Part shown: piece after piece, positions 753-31,893 of the stretch | Layout: each line of letters starts with the position of its first letter | Numbering within the stretch: position 1 is the stretch's first letter | DNA from: a virus | Taxonomy: Duplodnaviria > Caudoviricetes | DNA length: 38,217 bases | Strand: one strand, 5' to 3' | Virus record (IMG/VR): IMGVR_UViG_3300043103_000226 | Coordinates: 1 to 38,217 of that record | Translations under genes and position numbers: made by a program | The notes under the pieces: model-generated | What the model was told of the DNA's origin: nothing | What the model saw: only the letters and a program-made list of their open reading frames with translations | The model's database searches: none

Positions 753-774
753 TTGACACCGCCCCCAGATCGTG
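753..774 (+). promoter_or_regulatory. late element TTGACA-N13-GTG
   Basis: TTGACA 753-758, start codon 772. Confidence 0.7.
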
Positions 775-2622
775 GAAACCGCGATCTTCGTCAACCTCTC
801 CAAATACACCGCTCACGCAGGCATCACGGGGGTAGCACCTCCCACGGTTGACTGCACTCTGCTCACCGAGTGGCAGGTCAGCTTTGCCTTCTTCCAGCCC
901 GGCTCCGCCGCCGCTGCCCTCAGTGGTGCCACCTTCCGCTTTGCCCTCAAAGAGACCCCCACCAGCAGCCCGCTGATCTTTAGCAGCAGCCTCACCAATT
1001 CAGGGGCCGTCTACACGGCCGACTTCAGCAGCGTAGACAGTGCCGCCCTGCGCACCCTCATCGGCGATCAGCCCACCATCGAAGTCGTCGGCGAGATCGA
1101 GTGGACCATCAGCAGCCGCCGTGAGCGCGTGCATTTCCCCGTCACCGTCACCAATGCCTGGGCACGGCCTGACGACGCCGCACCCGATCCCGTCGCAGAG
1201 GCCAGCATCGTCTGGTTCAATGAGCAGCTCGCCACTCGCGCCGTGCGTTTTGATGTCGCTCAACAACTCACCACACAGCAGAAGACCCAAGGCCGCGACA
1301 ACCTAGGCATCACCGGCACCGGTGGCAGTGCAGCCTGGGCAGACATCACGGGCAAGCCCAGCACCTTTCCGCCAAGTGCCCACACGCATAGTGCTTCCGA
1401 TATTGTCAGCGGCGCACTGGCCGTGGCTAATGGCGGCACCGGATCAACAACCGCATCGGCCGCACGGGAAGCCCTAGGTCTGAGACTGGCCCAAGATGTG
1501 CAGCCTTACAGCGCGGTTTTGGATGCACTGCTGCCTCTTAATGTGCTGGATACTGGAGGCGATGTCGGAACCACTCTTCAGCTAGGCTCTGGTGCAAATT
1601 TTGTTGACGATAATGCCACGACATCAGGAGGTGATGCTGGGGAAATAAGGCTTGTAGGCGGAGATGCGTATGGAGATGCCTCGATCCAGCGTAACGGCGG
1701 AGATGCAGGATTGATTCTGATGCTTGGCGGTCATGCCTCTGATCAGTCTGAAGGCGGAGCTGCTGGCACCATCAATACCAGCGCATCCGGTCAATACCTT
1801 GGCGGCAGCCTGCTGATGAATGCCACTGACCGAAACGCAGGCAGCATCAACACGCAGGCTGGTGGTAATCTAACCATGGGCACAGCCAACGTCTCAGGGC
1901 CAGCCGTTGCTGGCACGCTGCTCACTGATGCCAGCAGCCTGCCAGCCGCTAACCTCACCGGCACCATCGACAATGCTCGTTTAGCTGCAAATATCACTGG
2001 TAGAGCAAGCTTTTCTGCCACAGACGGATCAACAAAAGACTCATCTTTAAGTGCCTCAAATCTTTCTTTTACGGATAACGATTCAGGTCAGCTAGTTAGC
2101 ATAGAGACGCCTGCCACAGGCAGTCAAATTTTCCTCACTTGGCCAAGTTCGACTGGCGTCTTACTAACCAACAACAGCAGTCTTCCAGCCGCTAACCTAA
2201 CAGATACGATTGCAGCAGCTAGAATGGGTTCAGGCACTGCGAACTCGAGCACCTACCTGCGAGGTAACAATACTTTTGCAGCCTTGCCAACAACCATCCA
2301 ACTTGCCTGCTCCGACGAAACAACGGCACTGACTACTGGGGTAAAAGTGACCTTCCGAATGCCCTATGGGATGACTCTCACGTCAGTGCGAGCTAGTCTG
2401 ACAACTGCACCAACGGTGTCCTCGGTTATAGTGAATGTTAAAGAAAGTGGTGCTACTGTTTTAAGTTCTTTGCTGACCATTGCTACTGGATCAAAAACTA
2501 GCACGACAACATCAATCAGCGACTCGTCATTGGCTGACGATTCGGAGATAACAATAGAGGTAACACAAAGTGGAGGCGTGGCCGCAGGTTTGAAATTAAC
2601 GCTCATTGGAACAAGATTATGA
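772..2622 (+). CDS. tail fibre / baseplate-attached fibre protein (616 aa)
   Basis: BppU-like N-terminus, WADITGKPSTFPPSAHTH fibre motif, GALAVANGGTG motif, Gly-rich shaft, repeated LLTxxSSLPAANLT, C-terminal beta domain. Confidence 0.8.
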   Translation: METAIFVNLSKYTAHAGITGVAPPTVDCTLLTEWQVSFAFFQPGSAAAALSGATFRFALKETPTSSPLIFSSSLTNSGAVYTADFSSVDSAALRTLIGDQPTIEVVGEIEWTISSRRERVHFPVTVTNAWARPDDAAPDPVAEASIVWFNEQLATRAVRFDVAQQLTTQQKTQGRDNLGITGTGGSAAWADITGKPSTFPPSAHTHSASDIVSGALAVANGGTGSTTASAAREALGLRLAQDVQPYSAVLDALLPLNVLDTGGDVGTTLQLGSGANFVDDNATTSGGDAGEIRLVGGDAYGDASIQRNGGDAGLILMLGGHASDQSEGGAAGTINTSASGQYLGGSLLMNATDRNAGSINTQAGGNLTMGTANVSGPAVAGTLLTDASSLPAANLTGTIDNARLAANITGRASFSATDGSTKDSSLSASNLSFTDNDSGQLVSIETPATGSQIFLTWPSSTGVLLTNNSSLPAANLTDTIAAARMGSGTANSSTYLRGNNTFAALPTTIQLACSDETTALTTGVKVTFRMPYGMTLTSVRASLTTAPTVSSVIVNVKESGATVLSSLLTIATGSKTSTTTSISDSSLADDSEITIEVTQSGGVAAGLKLTLIGTRL

Positions 2623-3989
2623 GTTTCATCATCAACCCATATAGTTTCGGGTTTAACCCTTTGTCGCTGAGTCCTGCTCTTTGGCTCAGTGATACAGGCA
2701 GCGACCCTGCTGTTTGGCCGGATTTGTCAGGCAATGGGAGGAATGCTACGCAGGCAACAGTAGGAGCGCAACCTGCTATTGTGACAGGTGCAATTAACGG
2801 GCGGCAGGTAAGGCGGTTTAATGGTTTAACTAACTACCTTCAAAGCAACTCTGCTTTAGCCACTACTACAGGGACTATTTTTGTCGTCAGTCAATTTACA
2901 GATTTGATTGTTGCTGATCGAGTGATTTTTCAAGCGGGAACCAACGCTACAAAAGCAAGTGTTGGTTTATCAATTCACACTAATCGTGCTCGAAAATCAT
3001 TCATTTATGGATCTACGGATATAATTGGAACTGCTACAACAAATGCCACAAGCATGAGTTGCATATTCAACGCTTCTGGCAATACCTATTACCAAGATGG
3101 CACACTAGTTGGGTCTGTTAGTGTAACAGGAATTAGTTGCGGTGCAGGCTTTACTGTTGGTTCATTGCGGGACGGATCTTTTACGACTTTTTACAAAGGC
3201 GACATCGCCGAAATTCTCGTCTTTCCAACCGCACTCAGCACCACAGACCGCCAAGCCGTTGAGTCCTACCTCCGCACCAAATGGGGCACACCTGCTCCAT
3301 TTGACCCGCTCTCACTAAGCCCAGCTCTTTGGCTTAGTGACACAGGCAGCGACCAGTCTGTGTGGCCTGATCTTTCGGGCAATGGGAGAAATGCTACAGC
3401 AGGCGCAGGGCAGCAACCTGCTATTATAGCTGGAGCGCAAAATGGGCGACAGGTTAGACGCTTTGATGGCTCAAATGATTACATGAGCTGCGGTAATGTG
3501 ATTAATGTTGGATTAGGAGAAATCACTTTATTTGCAGTTACTAAAATCAACTCAGGCGTTAATGTTGGGATCGTTGGAAAGTCGGTATCAGCAGCCGCGG
3601 GTGGGCGTTATACGATTGTAAGATATTTGGGTAATCTTGAAGCAAATGGTTCGTTTGATGCCGCTGGTGTTGGCCCGTCAGCAGTGTTACCATCCGATTC
3701 AAGCACTGCTATGCGTGTTCTGGGTGCTGTGCTAACAAGAGGGACTAGCACGCTTTATGTTAACGGTTCCTTGGCTGCAACAGCTTCATATACTGCTGTC
3801 AATACTGATTTTAATAATAGCTATCCATTGTATATCGGAGCATTTCAAAATGCAACTGGAACGGCACCAGTAGCTGGGTTTTACTTAAACGGTGACATTG
3901 CCGAAATCTTTATTTTTCAAAGAGCACTCAGCACCACCGACCGTCAAGCCGTCGAGTCTTACCTTCGCACCAAATGGGGCACACCATAA
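2619..3989 (+). CDS. receptor-binding protein with two tandem LamG/ConA-like domains (456 aa)
   Basis: two copies of F[ND]PLSLSPALWLSD...GDIAEI...ALSTTDRQAVESYLRTKWGTP; ATGA overlap with the fibre gene. Confidence 0.8.
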   Translation: MSFIINPYSFGFNPLSLSPALWLSDTGSDPAVWPDLSGNGRNATQATVGAQPAIVTGAINGRQVRRFNGLTNYLQSNSALATTTGTIFVVSQFTDLIVADRVIFQAGTNATKASVGLSIHTNRARKSFIYGSTDIIGTATTNATSMSCIFNASGNTYYQDGTLVGSVSVTGISCGAGFTVGSLRDGSFTTFYKGDIAEILVFPTALSTTDRQAVESYLRTKWGTPAPFDPLSLSPALWLSDTGSDQSVWPDLSGNGRNATAGAGQQPAIIAGAQNGRQVRRFDGSNDYMSCGNVINVGLGEITLFAVTKINSGVNVGIVGKSVSAAAGGRYTIVRYLGNLEANGSFDAAGVGPSAVLPSDSSTAMRVLGAVLTRGTSTLYVNGSLAATASYTAVNTDFNNSYPLYIGAFQNATGTAPVAGFYLNGDIAEIFIFQRALSTTDRQAVESYLRTKWGTP

Positions 3990-3997
3990 AAACGCTC

Positions 3998-4468
3998 ATG
4001 TCTAAAATTCTCTACTATATCCCCACTGGGACCCTTCGCCCATATCCTCGTAATGATGACGAGCCTGTGGTCGGTCTAGATCCAGATTACGACGTGTTTG
4101 ACGTAACCCATGAGGATCGGATACCGTATGATCCCGCCACTCAGTGCCTAACCGAAACTGAAACTATTGACGTTCCAGCAAAAACGGTGACTTACGGCTG
4201 GCGGATCGACGATCTTCCTTCCCCTCCGCCTCCACTCGACTACAAAATCTGGGCAAACGCGCAGGCATTTGTGGCGGAATTTACAGACGAGGAAAAGGCG
4301 GGAATTGCCCTCAGCACTGACCCGACAGTTGCCGCTCTGCGCTTTGAGCTTTCCACTTGGTTTTCCGAAGTCCATTCTAACGATCCTCGCGTTGTCGCGG
4401 GACTAGACAAACTCATCGAATTGCAGATCATCACCGAAATCCGACGAACCGAGATCATCGCACACTGA
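3998..4468 (+). CDS. tail fibre-associated/assembly protein
   Basis: follows the RBP; YDPATQCL..E motif, Pro linker, C-terminal DPRVVAGLDKL..ITEIRRTEII; start at ATG 3998. Confidence 0.55.
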   Translation: MSKILYYIPTGTLRPYPRNDDEPVVGLDPDYDVFDVTHEDRIPYDPATQCLTETETIDVPAKTVTYGWRIDDLPSPPPPLDYKIWANAQAFVAEFTDEEKAGIALSTDPTVAALRFELSTWFSEVHSNDPRVVAGLDKLIELQIITEIRRTEIIAH

Positions 4469-4471
4469 CGC

Positions 4472-4855
4472 ATGCTGACCCATCTCGCCACTCATGCCAC
4501 CGAGATTAAGCTGACCGCCGCCGCCGTGCTGGGCTTCTCAGCGTGGCTCGCTGATGCCAGTGGAGATCAAGAGATCAAAGGCTGGGAAGAGATCGGTCTC
4601 AAGGGCATCTTACTGTTTGCCGTCTATTACATCGGCAGGCTTTTTTTGTCAGCCCAGCGCGAGCACAAGGCCGAGATGAAAGAGACCTGGGACCTGCACA
4701 AAAACGAGTCCCTCAAACGTGAAGAACGCATGGCCGAAGCCATGACCAAGCAAACCGTCAGCCTCGAAAAACTCTGCGAGATCAGCCAGGAGCAGGTCGA
4801 ACATTTCCGCGCCTTCGTCAAAAGTGCCGTCGATGAAAAAATGCGGCCTCACTGA
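4472..4855 (+). CDS. membrane protein, holin/spanin-like
   Basis: two hydrophobic segments then a charged coiled coil; first gene of the lysis cluster. Confidence 0.5.
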   Translation: MLTHLATHATEIKLTAAAVLGFSAWLADASGDQEIKGWEEIGLKGILLFAVYYIGRLFLSAQREHKAEMKETWDLHKNESLKREERMAEAMTKQTVSLEKLCEISQEQVEHFRAFVKSAVDEKMRPH

Positions 4856-4888
4856 CCTGACCTTTAAAGCTCGCAGAGCGTAGGAGGT

Positions 4889-4913
4889 TTGACATCCTGA
4901 CCGGATTGTCATG
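4889..4913 (+). promoter_or_regulatory. late element TTGACA-N13-G (ATG 3 nt further)
   Basis: TTGACA 4889-4894, ATG 4911. Confidence 0.6.
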
Positions 4914-5159
4914 AAAACCCGCCCCATCGCCCTCATCCTGCTCTTGGCCATCATCGGCTTCATGCTCGCCGCCGTCACCAGCTGCTCAAGCCTCTCGCCC
5001 AGCACGCAGGCCAAGCTAGATGCTGCCTCCACCAAATACGAGACCACCACCGGCATCAGCCTTACCCAGACCCTTGGCCTAATCACCCAATGGTATCGTG
5101 ATTATCAGCGCACCAAAGCCGCCAACACGCCCCCAGCTCCCGACCTGCCGACCAAGTAA
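4911..5159 (+). CDS. lipoprotein, possible spanin component
   Basis: basic N-terminus, hydrophobic h-region, lipobox-like AVTS-C, Pro-rich tail, lysis context. Confidence 0.6.
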   Translation: MKTRPIALILLLAIIGFMLAAVTSCSSLSPSTQAKLDAASTKYETTTGISLTQTLGLITQWYRDYQRTKAANTPPAPDLPTK

Positions 5160-5183
5160 CTAAGCACCACGACTCTCATCGCC

Positions 5184-5441
5184 ATGAAGACTCTCATCAA
5201 ACTCGCCACTCGTTACCTGCAACCAGCCCTGGCCAACTACAAGACCACCCTCGCAGGCATCGCCATGATCCTGCACGCCTCACTCGTCATCATTGATCAA
5301 ACCGTCGGCATTGCCAACGGCACCGCCGAACTCAGCCCCGAGCAGCTCATGCTCGCCAAAGCCGAGATCCTTGGTGGCTTCGGCTTCATCTTTGCGCGCG
5401 ATGCCGACAAATCCAGCCAGCAAAGCGGCATCCGCAAATAG
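5184..5441 (+). CDS. putative holin (85 aa)
   Basis: NYKTTLAGI start, two TM segments, charged ARDADKSS tail, adjacent to the endolysin. Confidence 0.6.
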   Translation: MKTLIKLATRYLQPALANYKTTLAGIAMILHASLVIIDQTVGIANGTAELSPEQLMLAKAEILGGFGFIFARDADKSSQQSGIRK

Positions 5442-5476
5442 TCCTCTCGATCCAGTCTCATCCGCTCCCACTCCCA

Positions 5477-5512
5477 GCCGCTACCTGCACACCAGGCAGC
5501 GGCCTTTTTTTT
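5477..5512 (+). terminator. intrinsic terminator merging into a TTGACA element
   Basis: GCCGCTACCTG/CAGGCAGCGGC stem followed by T8. Confidence 0.7.
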
Positions 5513-5532
5513 GACAATCGTCTCAAGACATG
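5511..5532 (+). promoter_or_regulatory. late element TTGACA-N13-ATG
   Basis: TTGACA 5511-5516, ATG 5530. Confidence 0.7.
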
Positions 5533-5961
5533 TCCACCTCTGCCAAGATCTACGCCGCCGCCCTGCCCTACCTTGGCACCAAAGAAACCCCTGGAGCGGC
5601 CACAAATCCCACCATCACCCGCTGGATCAAACAAGCCGCCACATGGCTCGACAAAGACGACAGCAAAACCGCCTGGTGCGGCTGCTTCCGAGGTCACCTC
5701 GGCATCGAGACCGCCACCGGCTGCCCTCCTGAACATTACCGCGCCGCCGCCTGGGCTAAATGGGGCACCCGCATCGACATCACCAAGCCATTGCTCTGGC
5801 AACGTGGCGACACCATCGTCATGACCCGCCCCGGCGGCAACCACGTCTGTCTCCTTGACCGCATCCAAGGAACCAAGGCATACTGCCTAGGCGGCAACCA
5901 AAGTGACGCCGTCACCATCGCCCCCTTCCCCATCACCCGAATCACACACGTCAGACGTTAA
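5530..5961 (+). CDS. endolysin, CHAP/NlpC-P60-like (TIGR02594-type)
   Basis: YLGTKE.PG..TNP.I, TAWCGCF (catalytic Cys), GNHVCL (His), LGGNQSDAV. Confidence 0.85.
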   Translation: MSTSAKIYAAALPYLGTKETPGAATNPTITRWIKQAATWLDKDDSKTAWCGCFRGHLGIETATGCPPEHYRAAAWAKWGTRIDITKPLLWQRGDTIVMTRPGGNHVCLLDRIQGTKAYCLGGNQSDAVTIAPFPITRITHVRR

Positions 5962-6010
5962 AATTAACGGTCAAAAAACAAGACCTTACCTTTTATAAAA
6001 CCTCAAAATC

Positions 6011-6181
6011 CGTGACTTTAAACGTGACGCGCCCCTCAAACCCATAAAAACGCCTGCTAGAACTGCCTTCGATTCCTGTCGGGGACACCACCTTTACTGG
6101 GTGGGTTACTGGGTAAAGGGGGTATGAAAACGCTCGAAAATGCGCGAAAGTGATTTTAGGACGTGACGCGGACGTGACTTT
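6011..6181 (+). promoter_or_regulatory. integrase arm-type sites (CGTGAC direct repeats) flanking the att core
   Basis: CGTGACTTT 6011, ACGTGACGCG 6022, GACGTGACGCG 6160, GACGTGACTTT 6171. Confidence 0.65.
6068..6090 (+). other. attP core equal to the 3' end of a host tRNA (Arg-like)
   Basis: TTCGATTCCTGTCGGGGACACCA is T-loop, T-stem, acceptor strand and CCA; no 5' tRNA half; ~110 bp upstream of the integrase. Confidence 0.85.
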
Positions 6182-6197
6182 GTAGGAGTCTTTGGGG

Positions 6198-7364: not shown

Positions 7365-7384
7365 CTTGTGAGCCTTGAAAATAA

Positions 7385-7434
7385 TTCGCACAAAGTCCGA
7401 AAAAAGAATTTGCACAATTCGGACAATGTGCGAA
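7385..7434. promoter_or_regulatory. pair of 17-bp pseudo-palindromic operators
   Basis: TTCGCACAAAGTCCGAA 7385-7401 and TTCGGACAATGTGCGAA 7418-7434 in AT-rich DNA upstream of the HTH operon. Confidence 0.65.
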
Positions 7435-7474
7435 CTACTAAGGGTAGTCAGTCACAACAAACCAAAGCAAACTT

Positions 7475-7684
7475 ATGAAAACACAAATGGCCGTTCCTCA
7501 TCGTTACCTTGTATTTCACGGACTTAAGCAAGATGAAAATCAAAGCGAAAAAAGTCTGAACTGCTACTGGCTGCCTGCAGATGTTGATTCTTTCGAGTTT
7601 CAAGCTCGTAAAATGGAAGAGCTAAAATCCCAAATGGCTGATGATACCAGTGTTTTTTGGTCCAATACTCCTTTGCGTAAATGA
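7475..7684 (+). CDS. small hypothetical protein (69 aa)
   Basis: A-rich leader, ATGA overlap with the HTH gene. Confidence 0.65.
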   Translation: MKTQMAVPHRYLVFHGLKQDENQSEKSLNCYWLPADVDSFEFQARKMEELKSQMADDTSVFWSNTPLRK

Positions 7685-7866: not shown

Positions 7867-7890
7867 AAGCAGCCATTAACATTCAAATTC

Positions 7891-7923
7891 AGCGGAAGTC
7901 TTGGAAGAGTCTTCCGCTTTTTT
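7891..7923 (+). terminator. intrinsic terminator
   Basis: AGCGGAAG...CTTCCGCT stem followed by a T-tract. Confidence 0.75.
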
Positions 7924-9053: not shown

Positions 9054-9122
9054 GTTGCAATTTGCAACTTTTTAATTTGACGAGGTAGCATATTACCCCA
9101 TTATGGAGTCGCAATCTGCAAC
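9054..9122. promoter_or_regulatory. lysis/lysogeny switch: operators and rightward sigma70-like promoter
   Basis: perfect palindrome GTTGCAA-T-TTGCAAC 9054-9068, variant GTCGCAATCTGCAAC 9108-9122; TTGACG (9077)-N16-CATTAT (9099). Confidence 0.75.
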
Positions 9123-12211: not shown

Positions 12212-13009
12212 ATGAACGACTTCTCTGATCTGGCTGCCCTACGCACGAACCGCACGGATGGTGCGGGGCCGCGCTCTGGGCGCGTGACGCTGCTGTCTCA
12301 GGTGCTGGTGGCCTGTGTGACGGGTCGGCCTGCGCTGCCAGATATGGGGATCAGGGCTCTGTTTCTGATCGGCCGCATCGTGCCTGGTGTGCAGGTGGAT
12401 GTGGGTCGTCGGGAGCTGCGGCGGGTTTGCTTAGAATCAGGCACGGCTTTGCATGGGGTGGGTCTGGGTGAGGTGTCACTGGAAGAAAGACAGCACGTGG
12501 CTGAGCTGGTGCTGGGCGGTGAACGTGAGCCGCGCCGTGTGGGACGCCGTGTGAGTCTGCTGGCTTATGCCTTTGAACGTGGTGACGGGGTGCGCAGTGT
12601 GCTGCCATCCTTTGAAGCCATCGGTGCGCTGTGGGGCCTGAAGGCACGCAATCAAAGATCGGCCGTGTGTGCGGCGATGGATAAGACCGTCAGGCAAATG
12701 GTGGAGAAAGGTCAGCTGCGGTCCTGTGACTATGAGCAGATGACGGAGCTGTGGTTTGCGAAGAAGCGGGTGACGCGGGAACGCTATCACGCGGCCCAGA
12801 TCGGGAATGAAAACCGAGTGCCGAAAGCTGCGCCTGCAGATGACGAGGATCTTTCTGAGAGTGCGAGTCAAGCGGTGAAGAAGGAGCATGCGGAGCTGAT
12901 CGAGGGTGTGCCGGTGAAGCCTGAATTCAAGGGCCTGAGTGCGCTGGAACTGCGAGCGCGACTGCAACGGCTGTATGAAGCGGCAGATCTGCGGCGGCTT
13001 GGGCTGTGA
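12212..13009 (+). CDS. hypothetical protein with possible sigma-region-4-like HTH (265 aa)
   Basis: SFEAIGALWGL..RSAVCAAM followed by basic KKRVTRERY. Confidence 0.55.
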   Translation: MNDFSDLAALRTNRTDGAGPRSGRVTLLSQVLVACVTGRPALPDMGIRALFLIGRIVPGVQVDVGRRELRRVCLESGTALHGVGLGEVSLEERQHVAELVLGGEREPRRVGRRVSLLAYAFERGDGVRSVLPSFEAIGALWGLKARNQRSAVCAAMDKTVRQMVEKGQLRSCDYEQMTELWFAKKRVTRERYHAAQIGNENRVPKAAPADDEDLSESASQAVKKEHAELIEGVPVKPEFKGLSALELRARLQRLYEAADLRRLGL

Positions 13010-14175: not shown

Positions 14176-15573
14176 ATGAACGAAAACAATGGGATAGCGG
14201 TGGTCAGATCTCTGGCCCGAGTGGAGGAATGGGAAGTGAATCCGCGGGGTAACTCCTGCGTGAAGATCGAGGAGATGATGGAATCTCTGACTCTGATGGG
14301 CCTGCAAGATGCGATCCATATCTGGCCACGGCCGGATCGTGATCTGCTGCTGAAAGGTCACCGGCGTTTCGCGGCGATGACTCGACTGGGCTGGGAGGAG
14401 TGCGCGCAGGTGATCCATCATTTTGATGATGAGGCGCAGGCGTTTCAATACCTGCTGCAGGATCACGGGCACACTGAGCCGCTGAACAATGAGGAGAAGG
14501 TGTGCGCGATCGAAAACGGGGTGCGGCTGGGTCTGACGATTTCCGATTTGGCCCCAGCGATGGGGGTGACGCATGAACGGGCACAGCTGTGGTTTGATCT
14601 GGGTGAGGGTCTGTCTCAGGCGGGGCGGTCTGCCCTGGCTAAGGGTCTGCTCAGCGTCAATGTGGCGGAGGTGCTGCTGCAGGTGCCGGATAAGAAGGAC
14701 CGTGCTGCGGCGACTCAGCTGGTGCTTGAGGATATGATGGGTGAGCCGCTGAGCTACAAGGCGGCGCGTGACCTGGTGGAGGCAAACTACATTCTGCCTG
14801 CCAAATACAGAAGACAATGGCTGGAGATGCAGACCCAGCTAAAGAAGCGGTTTCGGGTGATCGATGGCTACATTTACGTGGACTATGAGATCATGAGTGA
14901 CTACACGATGGGGCTGAGTGGTCAGCCTTATCCTGACTTTGAATATGGTGACGGGCTGATGCCAAAGAGCACGGACGGTGAACGCTGGCAGGAGAAGGCG
15001 AAGCGGCTGGGTGTGCCGGTGTATGTGGTGCCTGCGCCGCTGCACTGTGACAAGTTTGTGCTGCTGGTGAGCTGGAAGATGATCCGTGATGCGGAGAGCG
15101 TGAAGCCTGCGGATCGGTCACCTGACGTGCCAGAGACGCCTGAGCAAGATGACGAGCAAATGCATGTGGATTTTATAGCATGCCAGGAGCCGGAGGTGGA
15201 GAAGCACGCTGATTTGAATGATGAGCAGCGAGCTCAGGTGAAGCTTTTTATGGGCGCGATCTGGGAGGCGATGCAGGAGAAGCCTGCGGTGGTGATGACC
15301 AGCGGCCCGTGGGAGCTGGTGCTGGATCGGCTGGTCTTTCAAGCTGAGGTGGGGATGGACTGGGCTCTGCATGCTTGGCTTGGCATCAACAGCACCGATG
15401 AGCTGGTGCTGTGGCTGAAACAGGATAAGCGGCAGCGTGCGCCGCTGCGTCAGGCATTGATGCTGCTGATGGCGGCGGAGATCGATGCGGTGGGCTCTCC
15501 GGGCTACATGCTGAAACGCATGGCGCAGGAGGTCGGGCTGGATGCTGACACTCTGGGAGGGCAGACCTGGTGA
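14176..15573 (+). CDS. ParB/RepB/Spo0J-like protein (465 aa)
   Basis: NPRG...SL...GLQDAI.I..LLLKGHRRFAAM; downstream HTH LTISDLAPAMG. Confidence 0.8.
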   Translation: MNENNGIAVVRSLARVEEWEVNPRGNSCVKIEEMMESLTLMGLQDAIHIWPRPDRDLLLKGHRRFAAMTRLGWEECAQVIHHFDDEAQAFQYLLQDHGHTEPLNNEEKVCAIENGVRLGLTISDLAPAMGVTHERAQLWFDLGEGLSQAGRSALAKGLLSVNVAEVLLQVPDKKDRAAATQLVLEDMMGEPLSYKAARDLVEANYILPAKYRRQWLEMQTQLKKRFRVIDGYIYVDYEIMSDYTMGLSGQPYPDFEYGDGLMPKSTDGERWQEKAKRLGVPVYVVPAPLHCDKFVLLVSWKMIRDAESVKPADRSPDVPETPEQDDEQMHVDFIACQEPEVEKHADLNDEQRAQVKLFMGAIWEAMQEKPAVVMTSGPWELVLDRLVFQAEVGMDWALHAWLGINSTDELVLWLKQDKRQRAPLRQALMLLMAAEIDAVGSPGYMLKRMAQEVGLDADTLGGQTW

Positions 15574-20347: not shown

Positions 20348-20367
20348 TTGACATTGCGAGATGCGCA
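20348..20367 (+). promoter_or_regulatory. late element TTGACA-N13-A upstream of the terminase
   Basis: TTGACA 20348-20353; likely ATG at 20385. Confidence 0.55.
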
Positions 20368-20384
20368 AAGGGGCAATTCGCGCA

Positions 20385-21068
20385 ATGTCTGAGCATAGAA
20401 ACGCAGATCTCATCACGGCTTACTGGCGTGAGGTGCTGCCGCATTGTGCGACGAAGCGCACGGCACAGGACCACTGCAAGAAGAACAACCCGAAGTGGAT
20501 CGCGTGGCTGGCGACTCAGGGGCGGAAGGTTCACAGCCCGAAGGAGACTCCGGGGGTGGTGCAGATTTTGGCACTGACGAAGAGGCTGAAGGAATCTCCG
20601 CCTGGTGCGGAGGAGGCTGAAGATCAGGCACCGAAGCCGCCTGGCTACGGTAAGCCGATCGAGGAAAGGACGCCGGAGGAGCATGCGGAGGTGGTGGCGT
20701 GGCAGATGTTTACGGAAAATTCATCGGCGGCGGAAAGGCTGGCGCGCTCTGATAGCATCACGGCGGCTGGGTTTGCACGTATTGCTTGCCAGTGTCTCGC
20801 GTCGTATCATGTGGCCAGGGCGAAGCGGGTGCAGGCGGATATTGAAAACAAGCGGCTGCTGCCGGTGTCGGAATATGAATCGCTGTGCCAGGATGCGCGG
20901 AGGCTGGCGGATCTTTGGAAGTCATTGGTGCCAGACTTGGCGGCGCAGATCGATCCGACGAATCCGGGGCGGGTGCGGAATCTGTTTGAAGAGTGGATTC
21001 AAAAACGGATCAACCCGGTGGTGCAGCGGTTCATCTTGAATGGGGAGCTGCCAGAATTAGCGGCATGA
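20385..21068 (+). CDS. terS: terminase small subunit (Nu1-like)
   Basis: position before TerL; YHVARAKRVQADIENKRLLPVSE coiled motif; start could also be 20361. Confidence 0.6.
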   Translation: MSEHRNADLITAYWREVLPHCATKRTAQDHCKKNNPKWIAWLATQGRKVHSPKETPGVVQILALTKRLKESPPGAEEAEDQAPKPPGYGKPIEERTPEEHAEVVAWQMFTENSSAAERLARSDSITAAGFARIACQCLASYHVARAKRVQADIENKRLLPVSEYESLCQDARRLADLWKSLVPDLAAQIDPTNPGRVRNLFEEWIQKRINPVVQRFILNGELPELAA

Positions 21069-22859: not shown

Positions 22860-22881
22860 TTGACACCCGGCCACCACGATG
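22860..22881 (+). promoter_or_regulatory. late element TTGACA-N13-ATG
   Basis: TTGACA 22860-22865, ATG 22879. Confidence 0.7.
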
Positions 22882-24833: not shown

Positions 24834-24835
24834 TT

Positions 24836-24857
24836 TTGACATGCCGTCTCCGGCATG
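24836..24857 (+). promoter_or_regulatory. late element TTGACA-N13-ATG
   Basis: TTGACA 24836-24841, ATG 24855. Confidence 0.7.
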
Positions 24858-25883
24858 TCCAAATGGTTCAACATTACCAACTCCGCCGCAGGTTCCGCCG
24901 TCATTGATATTTTTGACGAGATCGGATATTACGGCATCACGGCCAAAGATTTCGTGAATCAGCTGCGCCTGGCCACCGGCAACAACCTGACGAGTTTGAC
25001 CCTCAACATCGACAGCCCTGGTGGATCGGTCGATGACGGCCTGACGATCTATGATGCGATCAAGGCTCTGGGCGTGCCGGTCACTTCCAATGTCACCGGC
25101 ACCGCTGCGAGCATGGCTAGCGTGATCATGCTGGCCGCTGATAAAATCACCATCGCTGAAAATGGCCGCGTGATGATTCACCGCGTCTCCGGTGGTGTGG
25201 TGGGGAATCCTGATGACGTGGCGGCTGCGGCCGCTGTGATGAAGCAGTTTGAGGATCGCATCATTGAAATCTACATGGCACGCACGGGCAAAGATGAGAC
25301 AACGATCCGTGACCTGATGAAGGCTGAGATCGGCACGTGGTTCTTTGGTCAGGAGGCCGTGGATGCAGGCTTTGCGGATGAGGTCACGCCTGGTGTGCAG
25401 GCCAAGGCCTTTCAGCCGAACTGGATGAAGAATTTCACGATGCTGCCTGTGGCTTTGTTTGACATGCCAACAAACGCGAAGCCCACCGCTCACTCTCCTA
25501 AAAACATGAAAGCCCTCATTGCCCTCGCCTCCCTCGTCGGCCTCTCGCTCAACGGCGACGAGACCGAAGACCAACTCTGTGCCGCCATCGCGGCCCACAA
25601 GCCGACTCCACCGAAAATGGAGCTGAATGTGGAAGACCCTGAAACCAAGGCCCATTTCCAGAAGCTCGTCGATGAAGCCACTGCCAGCCTGAAAACTGAA
25701 GTGACCAATCTCACCGCTCTGATCAAGAACGGTGCCGCTGGTGCTGCTGGTGCCGGTGCCCCGGTGACTGCTGGTGCTCCAGCTCCTGAGGCTCCCACCA
25801 TGAGCCGCAAGGCCTTCAACGCACTCTCCCATGCTGAGCGCAATGCCTTCATGGCCACGAATGGAAAACTTTCCAACGACTAA
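24855..25883 (+). CDS. ClpP-type head maturation protease fused to scaffold
   Basis: IDSPGGSV, AASMASVI (Ser), MIH, TWF...EAVDAGFAD; C-terminal scaffold motif MSRKAFNALSHAERNAFM. Confidence 0.9.
   Translation: MSKWFNITNSAAGSAVIDIFDEIGYYGITAKDFVNQLRLATGNNLTSLTLNIDSPGGSVDDGLTIYDAIKALGVPVTSNVTGTAASMASVIMLAADKITIAENGRVMIHRVSGGVVGNPDDVAAAAAVMKQFEDRIIEIYMARTGKDETTIRDLMKAEIGTWFFGQEAVDAGFADEVTPGVQAKAFQPNWMKNFTMLPVALFDMPTNAKPTAHSPKNMKALIALASLVGLSLNGDETEDQLCAAIAAHKPTPPKMELNVEDPETKAHFQKLVDEATASLKTEVTNLTALIKNGAAGAAGAGAPVTAGAPAPEAPTMSRKAFNALSHAERNAFMATNGKLSND
25506..25883 (+). CDS. nested in-frame scaffold protein (125 aa)
   Basis: internal TTGACA 25459 and CTCTCCTAAAAAC leader before ATG 25506. Confidence 0.55.
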   Translation: MKALIALASLVGLSLNGDETEDQLCAAIAAHKPTPPKMELNVEDPETKAHFQKLVDEATASLKTEVTNLTALIKNGAAGAAGAGAPVTAGAPAPEAPTMSRKAFNALSHAERNAFMATNGKLSND

Positions 25884-25927
25884 TCCTCAAACAGCAACAC
25901 CCCACACTCCTCTAGATCCCCACTATT

Positions 25928-27094
25928 ATGGCTAACGACATCTCCCTCACAGGTCTCACTGAAATCCTTTATGCAGCCCGCGACATCGTCGCACGCGAGC
26001 CGAGTGGCTTCGCTCAGGGCGTCATCGTCAACGGCGGCTCCGAAGGCGTCTCCGCAGGCGGCACCGTCACCTCTCTGCGCACCACAGAGCCAACGCTTGA
26101 AACGAGCTACACTCCAGCCATGACACCGCCTGACGCGGCTGACATCACCACCATCGCCGACACACTCTCCCTGAGTCTGTATGCAGGCGTTAGCATCCCG
26201 CTCAAAGGTGAGCAATTCCAGCAGCTCGCCGCCACCGTCGGTGCTGAGCTCGCTCTCCAGCAGCTCTACAAGCAAGGCATCCGTGCGATGATCAACCGCA
26301 TGGAAAGCTCCATCGGCACTGCCGCTTATCAGGGTGCATCCCGCGCCACTGGCACCGCTGGCACCACGCCGTTTGGCAGCAACTTCAATTCCATCAATGA
26401 GCTCCGCCAGATCCTTGAGGACAATGGCTGCACGCTCGATGACGGTGAGCTCTCACTCATCATCAACAGCGTCGCTGGCACCAATCTCCGCAACCTCAGC
26501 CAATTGACCAAGGTCAATGAAGCTGGTGGTGACGCGCAGCTGCGCCGTGGTGAATTGCTGAACGTCTCCGGATTCAGCATCCGCACTTCCGCAGGTGTGC
26601 AGAGCCACACCAAAGGTGCTGGCACTGGCTACCTCATCAATGGTGCTGAGGCCATCGGCCAGACCTCTCTGACCTTTGATACCGGCACGGTGAACACCAC
26701 CGGCATCAAGGCTGGTGACATCATCACCCACGCGTCTGACACCACGAACAAATACGTGGTGAAGACTGGCAGCACCGCCACCTCGGGTGACATCATCATC
26801 AATCACCCAGGTCTCCGCATCGCTGCGGCTGACAATGCGGCCATCACGGTGGGCAACAGCTACACGGCCAACGTGGGCTTCCACAAGTCCGCCATCGAGC
26901 TTGCCATGCGCCCACCCGCACAGCCACCCGGCGGTGACGTCGGTGAAGAGATCGCAGTGCTTGTCGATGAAAAGACTGGCCTCTCATTCTCTGCCCGCCT
27001 CTACAAAGGCTACGGCATGAACCAGATCAAGCTCATGGCTTTCTACGGCGTCAAAGTCTGGAAACCTGAGTTTGTGGCCACGCTCATTGGCTAA
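25928..27094 (+). CDS. major capsid protein (P22-coat-like, HK97 fold)
   Basis: 388 aa after the protease; strong codon bias; NVGFHKSAIELAMRP, YGVKVWKPE. Confidence 0.85.
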   Translation: MANDISLTGLTEILYAARDIVAREPSGFAQGVIVNGGSEGVSAGGTVTSLRTTEPTLETSYTPAMTPPDAADITTIADTLSLSLYAGVSIPLKGEQFQQLAATVGAELALQQLYKQGIRAMINRMESSIGTAAYQGASRATGTAGTTPFGSNFNSINELRQILEDNGCTLDDGELSLIINSVAGTNLRNLSQLTKVNEAGGDAQLRRGELLNVSGFSIRTSAGVQSHTKGAGTGYLINGAEAIGQTSLTFDTGTVNTTGIKAGDIITHASDTTNKYVVKTGSTATSGDIIINHPGLRIAAADNAAITVGNSYTANVGFHKSAIELAMRPPAQPPGGDVGEEIAVLVDEKTGLSFSARLYKGYGMNQIKLMAFYGVKVWKPEFVATLIG

Positions 27095-27134
27095 ACATAC
27101 TTTCCTGAGCCAACTCAGGTTTGTTGAAAACATA

Positions 27135-27173
27135 GGTGCCGCCCTTTTGGTTTGGGGCGGCATCTTCTTTTTT
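27135..27173 (+). terminator. intrinsic terminator merging into a TTGACA element
   Basis: GGTGCCGCCC...GGGCGGCATC stem followed by a T-rich tail. Confidence 0.75.
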
Positions 27174-27193
27174 GACACTGCTCTGACGGTATG
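27172..27193 (+). promoter_or_regulatory. late element TTGACA-N13-ATG
   Basis: TTGACA 27172-27177, ATG 27191. Confidence 0.7.
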
Positions 27194-27445
27194 ATGGCCA
27201 CCGTCACAGAAGACTCAGATCCTTATGAAACGCTCAACGGCTTCCGCCGATTTGTGATCGAGCAGGGTGACAGCCAGATCATCATGCAGGTGCGCCAGAT
27301 GGTGCGTGAATCCTGTGACGGTGAGATCCACCCAGTGGATGGATTCAGCCACAGCAATCAGGTGGTGAATAACCAGCAGCTGATCTACGCGCTCAATCAA
27401 CTCTCCGCCGCTGCGACAACCAGCCCCCGCCTCCAAAGCTTATGA
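27191..27445 (+). CDS. hypothetical protein (84 aa)
   Basis: starts at a TTGACA element; ATGA overlap downstream. Confidence 0.6.
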   Translation: MMATVTEDSDPYETLNGFRRFVIEQGDSQIIMQVRQMVRESCDGEIHPVDGFSHSNQVVNNQQLIYALNQLSAAATTSPRLQSL

Positions 27446-27774
27446 GCCTGAAAGCCCTTCAAGCTGCGATGGCCTTGCAGCAAAAAATCAAGGAAACCTG
27501 CTATTCTGGCAGCTTCCGCTGGGCTGGCATTATCTATCCAGCGGCGATCACTCGGGGGCCTGCCTCGCAGGTGGCTATGGCAGATGGGTCTGGCTTTCGC
27601 CTGGTGCAGATGCTGACGATCTCGGTGAAGAAAACTTGCTTAACCACTGCCCCACCTGATGGCGGTATCCTGACGATCAATGCTCAGTCCTGGCGCGTGG
27701 ATGGCGTGGATGGCTACGACTCGGGCGATCTTAACTGGCGCATCACGGCCACGCAGTTCTCTCAAAGCTCATGA
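27442..27774 (+). CDS. head closure/head-tail adaptor (gpFII-like)
   Basis: 110-aa beta-rich protein, LTINAQSWRVDGV; synteny. Confidence 0.6.
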   Translation: MSLKALQAAMALQQKIKETCYSGSFRWAGIIYPAAITRGPASQVAMADGSGFRLVQMLTISVKKTCLTTAPPDGGILTINAQSWRVDGVDGYDSGDLNWRITATQFSQSS

Positions 27775-28580
27775 TCATCACGGCCAAAATTGACGCCTCG
27801 CGGCTGCTGAAAGTTTTGGCACAGTTTCCCTCTCAAACGGCGGCTGAGCAAAACAAGCTGCTCAATGACAATGTGCGGCTGCTGATCAGCTCCTCGGGCA
27901 ATGTGCCAGGGCTGGTGCAGATCATTCCGCCGCATTCTGAGGGCGTCAGTGGCACGGCTGCTAAGAAGCAGGGTGAGGGTGCGGTGATGCGTGATCTGAG
28001 CCGCGTGTATGCTAATCCGGGCACGGTGTATGCTGCGATGAAGTCGATAGGGGCTGACGGGCCTGCTGCGGCTTATTGGGCGGCATGGAAGGTGAAGGAT
28101 GTCTCTAAGATGCAACGCATCGCCGATTCTGTGCCGAGTCTGCCGTCTCAATTCAAAAGGCATCGCAGCTTTGATGGCGGCTCGGAGCATGGGAAACGCC
28201 GCGGCCGGAATGGCCGCGTGAATGGCATCAAGCCCTCCTTTGTGGTGACTGATCCGGCTGCGCTGAAAGCGTATCGACGCCGCAAGATGAAGAACGTGGG
28301 TATGCTGGCCTCGGCAGTGCCTTCGGCTTACAGTGGCCGCTTCGGTGCGCTGCGTGGCGTGCCTGCCTGGGTGAAGCGTCACAGTGCCCCAGGTGGCTAT
28401 GTGCGTGAACAAAAAACCAGTGCGGGACGAGTGGTAAAGATCGGTATCACTAGCCGGGCGATCTCTGACATGCAACGGCGGTTTAATAAGGTCCTCGGAT
28501 ATCGCGTGGCAGCGATTCAGCGGCAGCTGCCTTTCCTTGCCCGTAGTTTAGAAAAAAAACTGGCTGCTGGTTTAACCTGA
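27771..28580 (+). CDS. neck/tail completion protein
   Basis: very basic 269 aa; synteny. Confidence 0.55.
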   Translation: MIITAKIDASRLLKVLAQFPSQTAAEQNKLLNDNVRLLISSSGNVPGLVQIIPPHSEGVSGTAAKKQGEGAVMRDLSRVYANPGTVYAAMKSIGADGPAAAYWAAWKVKDVSKMQRIADSVPSLPSQFKRHRSFDGGSEHGKRRGRNGRVNGIKPSFVVTDPAALKAYRRRKMKNVGMLASAVPSAYSGRFGALRGVPAWVKRHSAPGGYVREQKTSAGRVVKIGITSRAISDMQRRFNKVLGYRVAAIQRQLPFLARSLEKKLAAGLT

Positions 28581-28587
28581 TTTTCTT

Positions 28588-29049
28588 ATGCCTCCGAATA
28601 CTGAATCCCTCATCCCTCAATTGCTGGCCAATTACGTGCATTCACGGCGCGCTGATCTGAGTCTGCCTTCCTCCACGCTGCTGCCCTTTGTGGTGGGTCC
28701 GACGACAGCTGAGGCTACCTATCCACGGGTCATCTTCCTGACCTCAACGGTGGAGATGATGCACCCGAAACGCTTTAAGCTGACGATCCTGGTGGAGTTA
28801 CAAAATCACGAAAAAAGTGATCCGGTGCAGGAGAATACATGGACGGCCGGCATCCGCTACATCCTAGCAGATGTGCAGGCATTTAGCACGTATCTGCGCG
28901 GCCTGACTTTGGCCCAGCGCACTGGCTGGAACATGATCGGCTATCGGCTGGGTGAGAGTGATCTGAGCCTGATCACGGACTCAGCCACACGCACGCGCAG
29001 CACGGACGTGATCGTGACGGTGCGCTCAGACGAGTTGGCTCCAGATTGA
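28588..29049 (+). CDS. tail terminator-like protein
   Basis: 153 aa, TYPRVIF motif; synteny. Confidence 0.5.
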   Translation: MPPNTESLIPQLLANYVHSRRADLSLPSSTLLPFVVGPTTAEATYPRVIFLTSTVEMMHPKRFKLTILVELQNHEKSDPVQENTWTAGIRYILADVQAFSTYLRGLTLAQRTGWNMIGYRLGESDLSLITDSATRTRSTDVIVTVRSDELAPD

Positions 29050-29069
29050 CATCTTGGGGATTCTGTATG
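29046..29069 (+). promoter_or_regulatory. late element TTGACA-N13-G (ATG 2 nt further)
   Basis: TTGACA 29046-29051, ATG 29067. Confidence 0.6.
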
Positions 29070-29555
29070 CGCAAACTTACCCTTCTTCTGCTTACCGCTT
29101 TTGCCGTCGTTTCCCACGCGGCTGACCTCACCATCACCGCTGCCAATGTGGTGCCCTCCAACAATGCCGTGGTGCGCTATGCCACCGCCGGTGCCACCAT
29201 CGCCGCGGGTCAGCTGATCTATTTGGATGCAGCGGATGTGGATGTGAACAACTTTGGCAAGGCCAAGCTTTCTGATGCCAATGGAGCTGTGGCTCTGCGG
29301 GTGGTCGAAGGCATCGCGGTGAACTCGGCTTCTTCCGGTCAGCGCATCTCTTACGTTTCCCATGATCCGGCCTTGGTGATCGCAGCTTCCGGTCTGACGA
29401 CGAATATGGTGCTGATCAGCTCGGGCACTGCTGGTGGCATCGCCCCAGTGGCTGATCTGACCACGGGCTGGTTCCTGCACGCGGTGGCAGTGGTGAAGAA
29501 CGGCACAACCGTTTATTTCCGCGCGCCTGGTCTGGTTTCTAGTGCTGCTAACTAA
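29067..29555 (+). CDS. decoration/cement-like protein with N-terminal signal peptide
   Basis: MRKLTLLLLTAFAVVSHA then ADLTITAANV..AGATIAAGQLIY..GIAVNSA..GQ. Confidence 0.6.
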   Translation: MRKLTLLLLTAFAVVSHAADLTITAANVVPSNNAVVRYATAGATIAAGQLIYLDAADVDVNNFGKAKLSDANGAVALRVVEGIAVNSASSGQRISYVSHDPALVIAASGLTTNMVLISSGTAGGIAPVADLTTGWFLHAVAVVKNGTTVYFRAPGLVSSAAN

Positions 29556-29579
29556 ACGCTCATCTCCCTCACTCCTCTT

Positions 29580-29975
29580 ATGCCTGCTCCCACTCCTCTC
29601 ATCATTCACGGTTCGGCTGATTCTCTCAACGACTTGCTCGATGAGGAAAACCTCGACGTCGAAGATTTTAAAATCAAATTCAGCCGCCAGACACGTGACC
29701 GCACGAACCGCTTTGGCAACCTGCGCCGCCGCGAGTATTTTAACCCGATGACGGCCATCAGCTTCACGGCTTTCGTGGTGACGGCTGCAGGCCTCGCGGC
29801 TCAGCATCCCGGCACACGTGTGATCTCTCTGGCAAATTTCGCTGTGGAGAAACGTGGCTTTGATCCAGCTGTCGGCACCATGATGCTCGATGACGCTGAG
29901 GACAGCTACACGCTCACGGAAGATCTGAAGACTTCGATGAATATCACGCACGCACCGTTTGTGGTGACTGCGTAA
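29580..29975 (+). CDS. major tail tube protein (putative)
   Basis: 131 aa beta-rich, strong codon bias, upstream of the chaperone and TMP. Confidence 0.6.
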   Translation: MPAPTPLIIHGSADSLNDLLDEENLDVEDFKIKFSRQTRDRTNRFGNLRRREYFNPMTAISFTAFVVTAAGLAAQHPGTRVISLANFAVEKRGFDPAVGTMMLDDAEDSYTLTEDLKTSMNITHAPFVVTA

Positions 29976-29994
29976 AAATCCCGCCTTAGACATC

Positions 29995-30771
29995 ATGAAG
30001 AACACTGCCGCACCGGCTTACACACGCACCACCAGCGTGGAGCTGGCTGCGGCTTTGTCCGTTATCGGGGTGCAGGTGAAGCCTGATCTCAGTGAGGACC
30101 GCGTGAGTGGTAAACGCTGGGAAAGCCTGCTGGTCAGCCTAGACACGCTGCCAGATCCGCAGGGTGAGCAATTGCCCAGCCATCAGACGAAACTGGTGAT
30201 GGCCATGGTGCAGACTGGGCAACTGCAGGATGCCGATCCGCATCACCCGGTGCTGGATGCTCTGCGAGCCTGCAAGGCGGCAGATACGCTGATCGAGTGG
30301 ACTCGTAAGGCAAAGCCGCACCGCCAAATGAAAGTGAAGGGCGCACAGCGGTGGCTGCTGGCTGAGGGTCAGTTACCACCCAGCATGAGCAGCATGCCAG
30401 GTCTGCTGGGCACGCGTGACATCAAGCTAGCGGCGTCTCTGATTGTCCTGGGCTTTCAGCTGCTGCGGCTGGAGGGCTCCGCTCCTGAGGTGCTCTTTGT
30501 CTTTGGGCAGGCTTTATTTCTCCCAGCTGAATCTCCACAGATCCTGCGCACGGCTTACCGCAACGGCAGCTTGGCGGCGGAATCCCCTGAGCATCCGCTG
30601 CTGTGGATGATGCAGGCTCTGAGTAACCGTGAGGCCATCCGTGACATGTTGCGGAGCCGTCAGCCGCTGATTCTGATCCGCGCACCGAATACAGGCCGGG
30701 CCAGCCTAGTGTCCAGCAATGCCAAAGGAAAGACGATGGACCGCGTGAAACGCCACCTGCAAATCCCATGA
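29995..30771 (+). CDS. hypothetical protein with internal duplication
   Basis: TTSVELAAALSVIG..DPHHPVL and TRDIKLAASLIVLG..SPEHPLL. Confidence 0.65.
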   Translation: MKNTAAPAYTRTTSVELAAALSVIGVQVKPDLSEDRVSGKRWESLLVSLDTLPDPQGEQLPSHQTKLVMAMVQTGQLQDADPHHPVLDALRACKAADTLIEWTRKAKPHRQMKVKGAQRWLLAEGQLPPSMSSMPGLLGTRDIKLAASLIVLGFQLLRLEGSAPEVLFVFGQALFLPAESPQILRTAYRNGSLAAESPEHPLLWMMQALSNREAIRDMLRSRQPLILIRAPNTGRASLVSSNAKGKTMDRVKRHLQIP

Positions 30772-31373
30772 ACACCGAAGAAATTCCCCTGCACCCCTGC
30801 GACTCCATCGAGGTCGAAGAAGCTGCCCATCTCAACCTTGAGTCGAACGGCTTTAGCGTGCCTGCCTCTGCGCCGATCATGATGGATGATGATGTGCCTA
30901 CCGATGGCCAAGATAAGAAAACAGAAGTGGATGAGGCCTTTGCAGCCCGTCCATTTTTTTGGAAACTTTTTAAGTTAGCCCCGTTCGCCATCGATCGTGA
31001 AGGCGACTGGCTACGCCACCGCGTGATGCTGCAGGAACCATCTCTAGATGAGCTGATTCGTGAGCCAAATGCCATGATGGCTGATGTGGCCCGTGTGCTC
31101 TGGTTTCTCACGCATGAGCCTGAGGAATGGCTGGCACTGCCAAGCATGAAGCAGCTCGGTGAGGCTGAAGATTACCGCTGGGTGAAGCTTTCTGCCTTTG
31201 ATCGGGCCATGGTCTTAGAGCTAAAGATTCGAGCATGGTCCATCGAGCATATTCATCACAGTGAAGCCGTGCAGGCTTTGGCCTTGTTTTATGACATTTA
31301 CCAGCGCGCCCAGGCCACCCGCGCCACGTCCCGGCCAAACGCTCAGCACGATGCCTCACGCGAAAAAAAATAG
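30768..31373 (+). CDS. tail assembly chaperone (gpG-like)
   Basis: ends GAA AAA AAA TAG; upstream of the TMP. Confidence 0.75.
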   Translation: MNTEEIPLHPCDSIEVEEAAHLNLESNGFSVPASAPIMMDDDVPTDGQDKKTEVDEAFAARPFFWKLFKLAPFAIDREGDWLRHRVMLQEPSLDELIREPNAMMADVARVLWFLTHEPEEWLALPSMKQLGEAEDYRWVKLSAFDRAMVLELKIRAWSIEHIHHSEAVQALALFYDIYQRAQATRATSRPNAQHDASREKK

Positions 31374-31594
31374 CTCGGCCCTGCCTGAGTGCCACCTACG
31401 TGTCGCTTGTGTCCAGGGCCTGTCCTTCTCTCACCAATGAAGACTTCATCCGTTATCACTTACCGCAAGAACGCGGCTGGGCCTACATCCATGAGTATCT
31501 CCTATCACAAGGCGGCGACATGCGCTGGCCGCAGAGTCAAGACAACGCCGAAGGCCGCTGGTGGCAAAGAATCCTCAAAAGTTTGAAATCATGA
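31370..31594 (+). CDS. -1 frameshift extension (gpT-like; fusion ~275 aa)
   Basis: -1 frame is open from the A8 run: IARPCLSATYVSLVSRACP...LKS. Confidence 0.75.
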   Translation: MARPCLSATYVSLVSRACPSLTNEDFIRYHLPQERGWAYIHEYLLSQGGDMRWPQSQDNAEGRWWQRILKSLKS

Positions 31595-31836
31595 TCACAT
31601 CAGAAGCCTTTTACATTTTAGAGGCCTTTGGCTTTGAGTTTGTTGGCCCTGATAAAAAGCAGCGGGAAAACTGGGTTTATCTGGCAAAGACTGCCACGCA
31701 GGATGTGGTGATCTCTCTGCCGGAGAATGCCTGCACGGAGGAGCTGTTGGAGGCCATCGTGGCTACGGGCCGTGCGCAGAATCGTGAGAAGGTGAGGGAA
31801 GCGCATCAGCGGTGGCTTGAGACTTTCAAAGGCTAA
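31591..31836 (+). CDS. hypothetical protein (81 aa)
   Basis: ATGA overlap start at 31591. Confidence 0.6.
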   Translation: MITSEAFYILEAFGFEFVGPDKKQRENWVYLAKTATQDVVISLPENACTEELLEAIVATGRAQNREKVREAHQRWLETFKG

Positions 31837-31865
31837 AAGACGGCGCGGCTTGAGGTGGGTTCATT

Positions 31866-31893
31866 GTGTCAATGACACGCGCCGTTAAGTATG
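31866..31893 (+). promoter_or_regulatory. late element variant ATGACA-N13-ATG within palindrome GTGTCA-A-TGACAC
   Basis: ATGACA 31872-31877, ATG 31891. Confidence 0.55.

Follow-up and report, generated by a model that had tools for sequence, protein, structure and literature searches.

What switches on the late genes of the phage whose genome is held as IMG/VR record IMGVR_UViG_3300043103_000226? The whole stretch that we analyzed, 38,217 nucleotides and hereafter called the window, holds the full genome of a temperate siphophage and has a terminal repeat of 127 bp. Its integrase, repressor, and early genes lie at ~6.2–20.0 kb, and its head, tail, and lysis genes at 20.3–38.2 kb and 0.7–6.0 kb. 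A preliminary description had drawn attention to TTGACA, the sigma70 −35 word, standing exactly 13 nt ahead of several late start codons, and had proposed either a phage late promoter centered near −16 or a new signal for translation initiation. From the sequence comparisons below, we conclude that the element is real and conserved and most likely represents an undescribed promoter architecture.

The hexamer and its spacing

A full scan of both strands found 12 copies of TTGACA in the window, nine on the + strand and three on the − strand (3797, 13998, and 31867). Shuffling predicted 20.6 ± 4.1 copies; the hexamer is thus not enriched overall, and its signal is positional. All nine + strand copies fall in late modules, just where the preliminary description had placed them, and are listed here with one variant site.

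753..772, + strand: TTGACA-N13-GTG, predicted leaderless start of the tail protein gene 772–2622
4889..4911, + strand: TTGACA with predicted +1 at 4908 (T/G), 3-nt leader, and ATG 4911 of an 82-aa protein with a hydrophobic N-terminus in the lysis module
5477..5530, + strand: terminator-like hairpin whose T-run runs into TTGACA 5511–5516, then N13-ATG of the lysozyme-like gene 5530–5961
20348..20385, + strand: TTGACA with predicted +1 at 20367 (C/A), 18-nt leader, and ATG 20385 of a putative small terminase, assigned by position
22860..22879, + strand: TTGACA-N13-ATG of a gene for 109 aa that stands between the large terminase and portal genes and is gpW-like by position
24836..24855, + strand: TTGACA-N13-ATG of the Clp-type head maturation protease
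25459..25883, + strand: intragenic TTGACA past the Clp domain, with its +1 predicted at 25478 and, in frame, ATG 25506 of a putative 125-aa scaffold protein
27134..27191, + strand: terminator after the major capsid gene (stem 27134–27165) whose T-run runs into TTGACA 27172–27177, then N13-ATG
29046..29067, + strand: TTGACA with predicted +1 at 29065 (T/G), 2-nt leader, and ATG 29067, in the tail module
31866..31893, both strands: 13-bp palindrome (31866–31878) in which ATGACA-N13-ATG of the tape measure gene on the + strand overlaps a − strand TTGACA

As originally reported, ATG or GTG follows after exactly 13 nt (N13) at 753, 5511, 22860, 24836, and 27172, and likewise after ATGACA at 31872, where the palindrome possibly holds divergent promoters. 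The probability that at least five of nine sites have a start at N13 is 1.5e-7, or 4.6e-6 when multiplied by 30 spacings. At the four remaining + strand sites, the ATG comes 15, 16, 31, and 41 nt after the hexamer. The reported purine at the 14th base is present at all nine sites; the base before the hexamer is A or T at all nine, and the 13th base after it is a pyrimidine at eight. The further claim that the hexamers lie ahead of gene starts needs refining at 25459, which lies within the protease gene, before an in-frame internal ATG. RNA contigs from one run, with a word share of 0.05, gave 12 records on 19500–38217 and one partial record on 1–19500; they hold no start information and were not used as evidence.

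The same spacing recurs in related phages. Among unique-spacer sites from 61 viral loci plus the window (n = 164), a start codon stands at N13 in 53, at N14 in 7, at N15 in 4, and at N16 in 21, and each of 18 one-mismatch hexamers gave only 0–3 starts at N13. The logo reads W-TTGACA-Y, a flat C-rich spacer, and a pyrimidine/purine (Y/R) step, with no further element from −49 to +41; a C 7–8 bases after the hexamer is only weakly seen (80 and 69 of 164 sites). We analyzed 17 of 18 near-complete relatives, leaving out one that is near-identical to the window (G006), and N13 starts were found in all 17, at 3–8 sites each, so that the spacing test suggested in the preliminary description came out in its favor. 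Collapsing the relatives to seven cluster representatives left an N13 start at 31 of 82 sites. Four of five further records match an N13–17 pattern, against one reversed-control match in all, and the miss is a 12.9-kb fragment. Each genome carries 7–15 TTGACA sites in a gene-by-gene layout, often directly after terminators. In G003, G005, G013, G019, and L002, a further TTGACA is conserved in the replication region; its spacer is G-rich, and it lies ~640 bp ahead of the small terminase site. The exact word is missing there from the window.

The host is probably a verrucomicrobium. Of cultured phages, Akkermansia phage Moulinsart has the best-matching terminase (34%); part of PMC10197239 lists it among induced prophages, with A. 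muciniphila YL44 as its host. The ParB-like protein has a 47% homolog named from Prosthecobacter sp. Moulinsart and P8625, a cultured phage of Verrucomicrobia, are motif-negative, with N13 spacing in 0 of 14 and 0 of 20 TTGACA sites, respectively. P8625 has four TTGACA sites with a start at N28–32, and its late element differs from the compact N13 element. At P8625 positions 4637, 5412, 10736, and 15558, TTGACA is followed by GTATC in the spacer and by an ATG 29–30 nt after the hexamer, which is the canonical distance.

Promoter or translation signal

We next asked what the fixed distance measures. Among sites with no start codon at N13 or N14, a Y/R step falls exactly at N13 in 76 of 109 and at N12 in 1 of 109 (background 0.254), and the cluster representatives give 31 of 49 non-start sites (p = 2.6e-8). 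Even sites having no start anywhere in N11–18 keep the step at N13 (53 of 84). A pyrimidine at −1 and purine at +1 is the general bacterial start pattern, Akkermansia included, and Akkermansia shows a canonical −35/−10 bias with 10% of starts leaderless, as described in part of PMC4782308. Summed over 18 genomes, the late-gene strand holds 216 copies of TTGACA, where 95.5 were expected, and the opposite strand holds 15, where 97.1 were expected; in the two motif-negative phages the strand counts are near expectation. At 9 of 169 sites, 5511 and 27172 of the window among them, the T-run of a terminator passes directly into the hexamer, compared with 24 of 1,500 controls.

The intragenic site offers a separate view of the same word. 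After the Clp domain, TTT-GAC-A is kept in all 17 protease genes examined (G017, with no protease hit, was left out). TTT makes up only 55 of 217 Phe codons, and the residue that follows varies (Thr, Ile, or Met); retention against this codon bias, with a variable next residue, points to conservation of the hexamer at the DNA level. An in-frame ATG 38–68 nt further on (14 nt in one genome) opens a 124–188-aa C-terminal product, nested in the protease gene, that is likely a scaffold protein. In the window, a transcript from 25459 would be shared with the capsid gene (25928), for which this phage has no separate hexamer. Upstream of this gene (25880–25928), the C/A-rich leader found in relatives is kept and the hexamer is lost; many relatives have one 42 nt upstream.

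No −10 box accompanies the hexamer, in agreement with the preliminary description: TAnnnT lies 16–18 bp downstream, at the canonical distance, in just 2 of 169 sites, and within the spacer at a −10-type position (starting −13 to −11) in 1 of 169, the logo being flat from −12 to −7. The relatives carry canonical TTGAC(A/G)-16/18-TAnnnT promoters elsewhere, often with TTGACG, and the compact sites are therefore a separate class. Start codons lie from N13 to ~N68, and the Shine-Dalgarno (SD) words GGAG, GAGG, and AGGA are found in 0 of 36 longer leaders. The reported contrast in SD use is real. SD-like words occur at 1 of 26 late and 12 of 24 early starts (one coordinate having been dropped from each list), but the lack covers the whole late region, motif-linked or not, and only about half of the early genes carry the GGAGG-like words that had been ascribed to them as a class.

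Together, the Y/R step, the purging of the antisense strand, the intragenic conservation, and the abutment on terminators argue for a promoter acting at the DNA level and not for a translation signal. Of the two proposals in the preliminary description, the late promoter centered near −16 thus gains support from the spacing, the step, the strand depletion, and the protease genes, and the same tests disfavor the other. As a translation-initiation signal, TTGACA would stand in place of an SD on a polycistronic late mRNA, and the fixed distance to ATG or GTG at about a third of sites and the SD-less spacer would fit this. We nevertheless consider it very improbable, since the fixed feature is the Y/R step even where there is no start codon, start codons are spread over more than one spacing, motif-free late genes lack an SD too, a terminator closes the upstream transcript at some copies of the motif, and an mRNA signal has no reason to purge the antisense strand. 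Equally small is the probability we give to an RNA-processing or antiterminator-loading site, at which upstream transcripts would be cut or modified at a set distance to yield processed leaderless messages. Fixed 5′ ends would result likewise, and one row of the VIA structure comparisons described below comes from the AlpA-loaded antitermination complex (chain 7xyb_G, Z 4.7). The antisense purging and Y/R step fit initiation, however, the sites are laid out gene by gene and often right after terminators, and the 17 relatives share no universal nuclease candidate. An ordinary sigma70 −35 with a degenerate −10 and starts inside the open reading frames (ORFs), or chance, is hardly credible: the word is the canonical −35 and P8625 has it at the canonical distance from late starts, but the window probability is ~5e-6, the −10 match at 16–18 nt is almost always missing, and at N13 sites a canonical start would lie within coding sequence.

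The candidate activator and a second lineage

If the element is a late promoter, something should read it. Three early features bear on this.

9077..9104, + strand: weak canonical sigma70-like site, TTGACG-16-CATTAT (9/12, a consensus match only), ahead of the early operon with the candidate activator
12212..13009, + strand: candidate late activator, 265 aa, with an N-terminal helical domain, a sigma region-4-like helix-turn-helix (HTH) at ~86–170, and a conserved basic helix at ~181–202
14176..15573, + strand: ParB-like protein with a GHRR motif and HTH, the only other universal early gene, downstream of the candidate activator

We consider it probable, taking both parts jointly, that the element is an undescribed compact late promoter with its +1 near the 14th base and a requirement for a phage factor. 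The 14th base after the hexamer is very probably the +1, about a third of messages being leaderless and the rest having SD-less leaders of 1 to ~55 nt. Given that start, it is quite likely that a phage factor is needed and gives the late timing; given such a factor, ORF 12212 is a fairly good choice for it; and given ORF 12212, we lean slightly toward its own HTH, and not host sigma-A region 4, touching the hexamer. In this scheme, early sigma-A promoters would drive expression of ORF 12212, whose protein would bind W-TTGACA-Y as a single element at −20 to −13. With no second element in the logo, the hexamer is all that a sequence-specific activator could bind. The bound protein would position the host's RNA polymerase for initiation 13 bp further on, without a −10 box, and late genes would be switched on gene by gene, with messages that are leaderless or carry short SD-less leaders.

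The distribution of early genes makes ORF 12212 a candidate. Among the window's early genes, it and the ParB-like gene are present in 17 of 17 relatives, the integrase in 16, and the primase and helicase in 9; ORF 12212 is found in 18 of 18 near-complete records, stays where primase/helicase or head genes are swapped, and, like the ParB-like gene, is missing from motif-negative Moulinsart and P8625. Because 9 of the 17 genomes were found via ORF 12212, the unbiased co-occurrence rests on the other eight, which were selected by the protease alone and all carry the gene (8 of 8). The two genes stand in tandem in the eight relatives mapped; in the window, they are separated by an ORF of excisionase size and a phrog_5931 gene. 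An obligatory ParB co-factor, acting like the T4 clamp, was considered and is weakened by the second lineage described below, where 0 of 10 records have ParB. A predicted complex of the two proteins scored 0.00, which speaks neither for nor against.

The ORF 12212 family comprises 54 representatives at 50% identity, and the protein may carry a sigma region-4-like fold, although the structural indications are weak. Two structure models are all-helical, with mean predicted local distance difference test scores of 76 and 83. In VIA comparisons, 18 of the 50 top rows for the first model are sigma chains (best Z 5.3, root-mean-square deviation 3.5, 69 aligned), as are the top four for the second (Z 4.2–4.4); whole-protein models were searched, and the sigma rows cover only residues ~77–177. 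PDB sequence searches with A1 and A5 gave no significant match, and the ESM Atlas neighbors, at 0.90–0.91, are all unnamed. A likeness of the conserved C-terminal basic helix to NUMOD3 was considered, and Pfam does not support it.

A second lineage, found from loci L036 and L141, uses a spacing longer by one: a start stands at N14 in 44 of 109 unique sites and at N13 in 2, with hits in 32 of 33 loci. At non-start sites of this lineage, the Y/R step is not clean, falling at N14 in 22 of 55 with similar counts at N11 and N19. These phages (L141:76–573; L166–L198) encode an HTH protein of ~165 aa upstream of the terminase genes, from a large unnamed family with Atlas clusters of up to 432 members; its nearest named ESM Atlas clusters are Sigma70_r4 types (0.75–0.76), which is a lead only. 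Spacing thus varies with regulator family, though host differences could explain this equally. In the same lineage (L166–L198), 25 of 109 sites have a TGTCAA no more than 12 nt before TTGACA; these back-to-back hexamers are again possible divergent promoters, and no antisense product was identified. A new initiation mode, in which phage proteins with only a sigma region-4-like domain would let host RNA polymerase start 13–14 bp past a lone TTGACA with no −10, the protein variant setting N13 or N14, is a tentative and rather doubtful generalization; under it, the protein, bound to the host −35 consensus, could also silence host sigma-A promoters.

Several observations weigh against a phage-activated compact promoter read by ORF 12212. 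The start positions are themselves read from sequence, and the window by itself shows only a weak strand bias (9 copies against 7.1 expected, and 3 against 7.6). The spacer is 67% GC and would be hard to melt without a −10, and melting of the GC-rich −12 to −1 stretch is explained neither by ORF 12212 nor by a host sigma-A model. The co-occurrence is tempered by the recruitment of 9 of 17 genomes through ORF 12212 itself, by a motif-negative set of just two phages, and by the ParB-like gene, which co-occurs equally in the N13 lineage. Pfam has no match for ORF 12212 and the Sigma70_r4 hidden Markov model (HMM) also misses it; Foldseek against PDB and BFVD found none at E ≤ 0.001, and the VIA Z values are weak, in the range of common helical arrangements. 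HMM matches to ORF 12212 or ParB were found in 0 of 10 N14-lineage records, most of uncertain completeness. Between the two HTH families, full profiles give an in-register alignment at E 0.14, and cores trimmed after inspection one at E 0.003 with a probability of 10% and 0 of 100 block shuffles higher, so that homology is weak. Although their recognition helices differ, both lineages use the host −35 word exactly, a pattern more in keeping with contact by host sigma. Finally, a scan of genome contigs with the capsid protein returned no Verrucomicrobia record, and the host genome thus lies outside the analysis.

The last of the sequence points but one leads to a rival that keeps the promoter and competes only over who contacts the hexamer. 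Host sigma-A region 4 would read the −35 word, shifted ~16 bp downstream by a phage protein that remodels the holoenzyme and aids melting, in the manner of lambda Q. Besides the shared sigma70 consensus, the geometry is attractive: the hexamer ends at −14, directly upstream of the −12 to −7 slot, and in the Q-loading complex, as described in part of PMC9388147, region 4 of sigma quits the flap-tip helix and binds a −35-like site just upstream of region 2, a −35-like word thus being read off-position with a phage protein. That complex, however, is a paused elongation complex that depends on two further sequences, a −10-like pause element and a Q-binding element, and the compact sites have neither. 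Taken as a whole chain, we regard this reading as unlikely.

Other features of the early and tail regions were noted in passing. A membrane protein with GYF_2 and a zinc ribbon (7985–8518) adjoins the repressor, is found in 12 of 17 relatives, and is a possible superinfection-exclusion gene. Two early paralogs of unassigned function stand in tandem at 11203–11933, and three collagen-like tail fiber paralogs in tandem at 34952–37966.

Known systems and meaning

The compact element shares TTGACA, the Y−1/R+1 step, and leaderless use with sigma70/sigma-A promoters (Akkermansia, in part of PMC4782308; P8625, by sequence), but its hexamer lies ~16 bp nearer the predicted start, at −19 to −14, and has no −10. 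The T4 (gp55/gp33 with the gp45 clamp) and Mu C late promoters, as covered in part of PMC12867686, likewise have phage proteins redirecting host core polymerase with one canonical element missing; they keep the −10 and lack the −35, whereas the compact sites keep a shifted −35 word and lack the −10. Thermus phage Lalka27a, also temperate and without its own polymerase, has many gene-by-gene late promoters with one hexamer, TAGGGT, but this hexamer, as described in part of bioRxiv 10.64898/2026.04.20.719267, is a variant −10 element standing 6 nt ahead of mapped starts, as against a gap of 13 nt to a predicted start here. Literature searches of open-access text, without supplements, found no description of the compact element, and the word "promoter" was not found in passages of the P8625 genome paper (PMC4642752).

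The logo of the compact sites holds no information upstream of −21 and no sigma54-type GG ~12 bp upstream of a downstream element; sigma54 promoters carry −24 GG and −12 GC. The lytic promoters of Streptomyces phage phiC31 resemble the compact sites in having a single conserved, phage-specific block just upstream of their starts, but that block is 21 bp long and unrelated to the host −35. Whole-protein comparisons gave no sigma-2 match for ORF 12212. Opening of bacterial promoters is generally taken to depend either on a −10-type element that sigma region 2 reads or on the sigma54/ATPase route. If the proposed reading is true, a promoter that consists of nothing but the −35 word at −19 to −14, over GC-rich DNA, would position and open RNA polymerase in another manner. 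One 265-aa protein with a 20-bp cassette may serve as a compact orthogonal switch for leaderless expression, and the spacing offers an easy criterion by which to call gene starts and internal scaffold genes in a large group of uncultured phages whose hosts are probably Verrucomicrobia.

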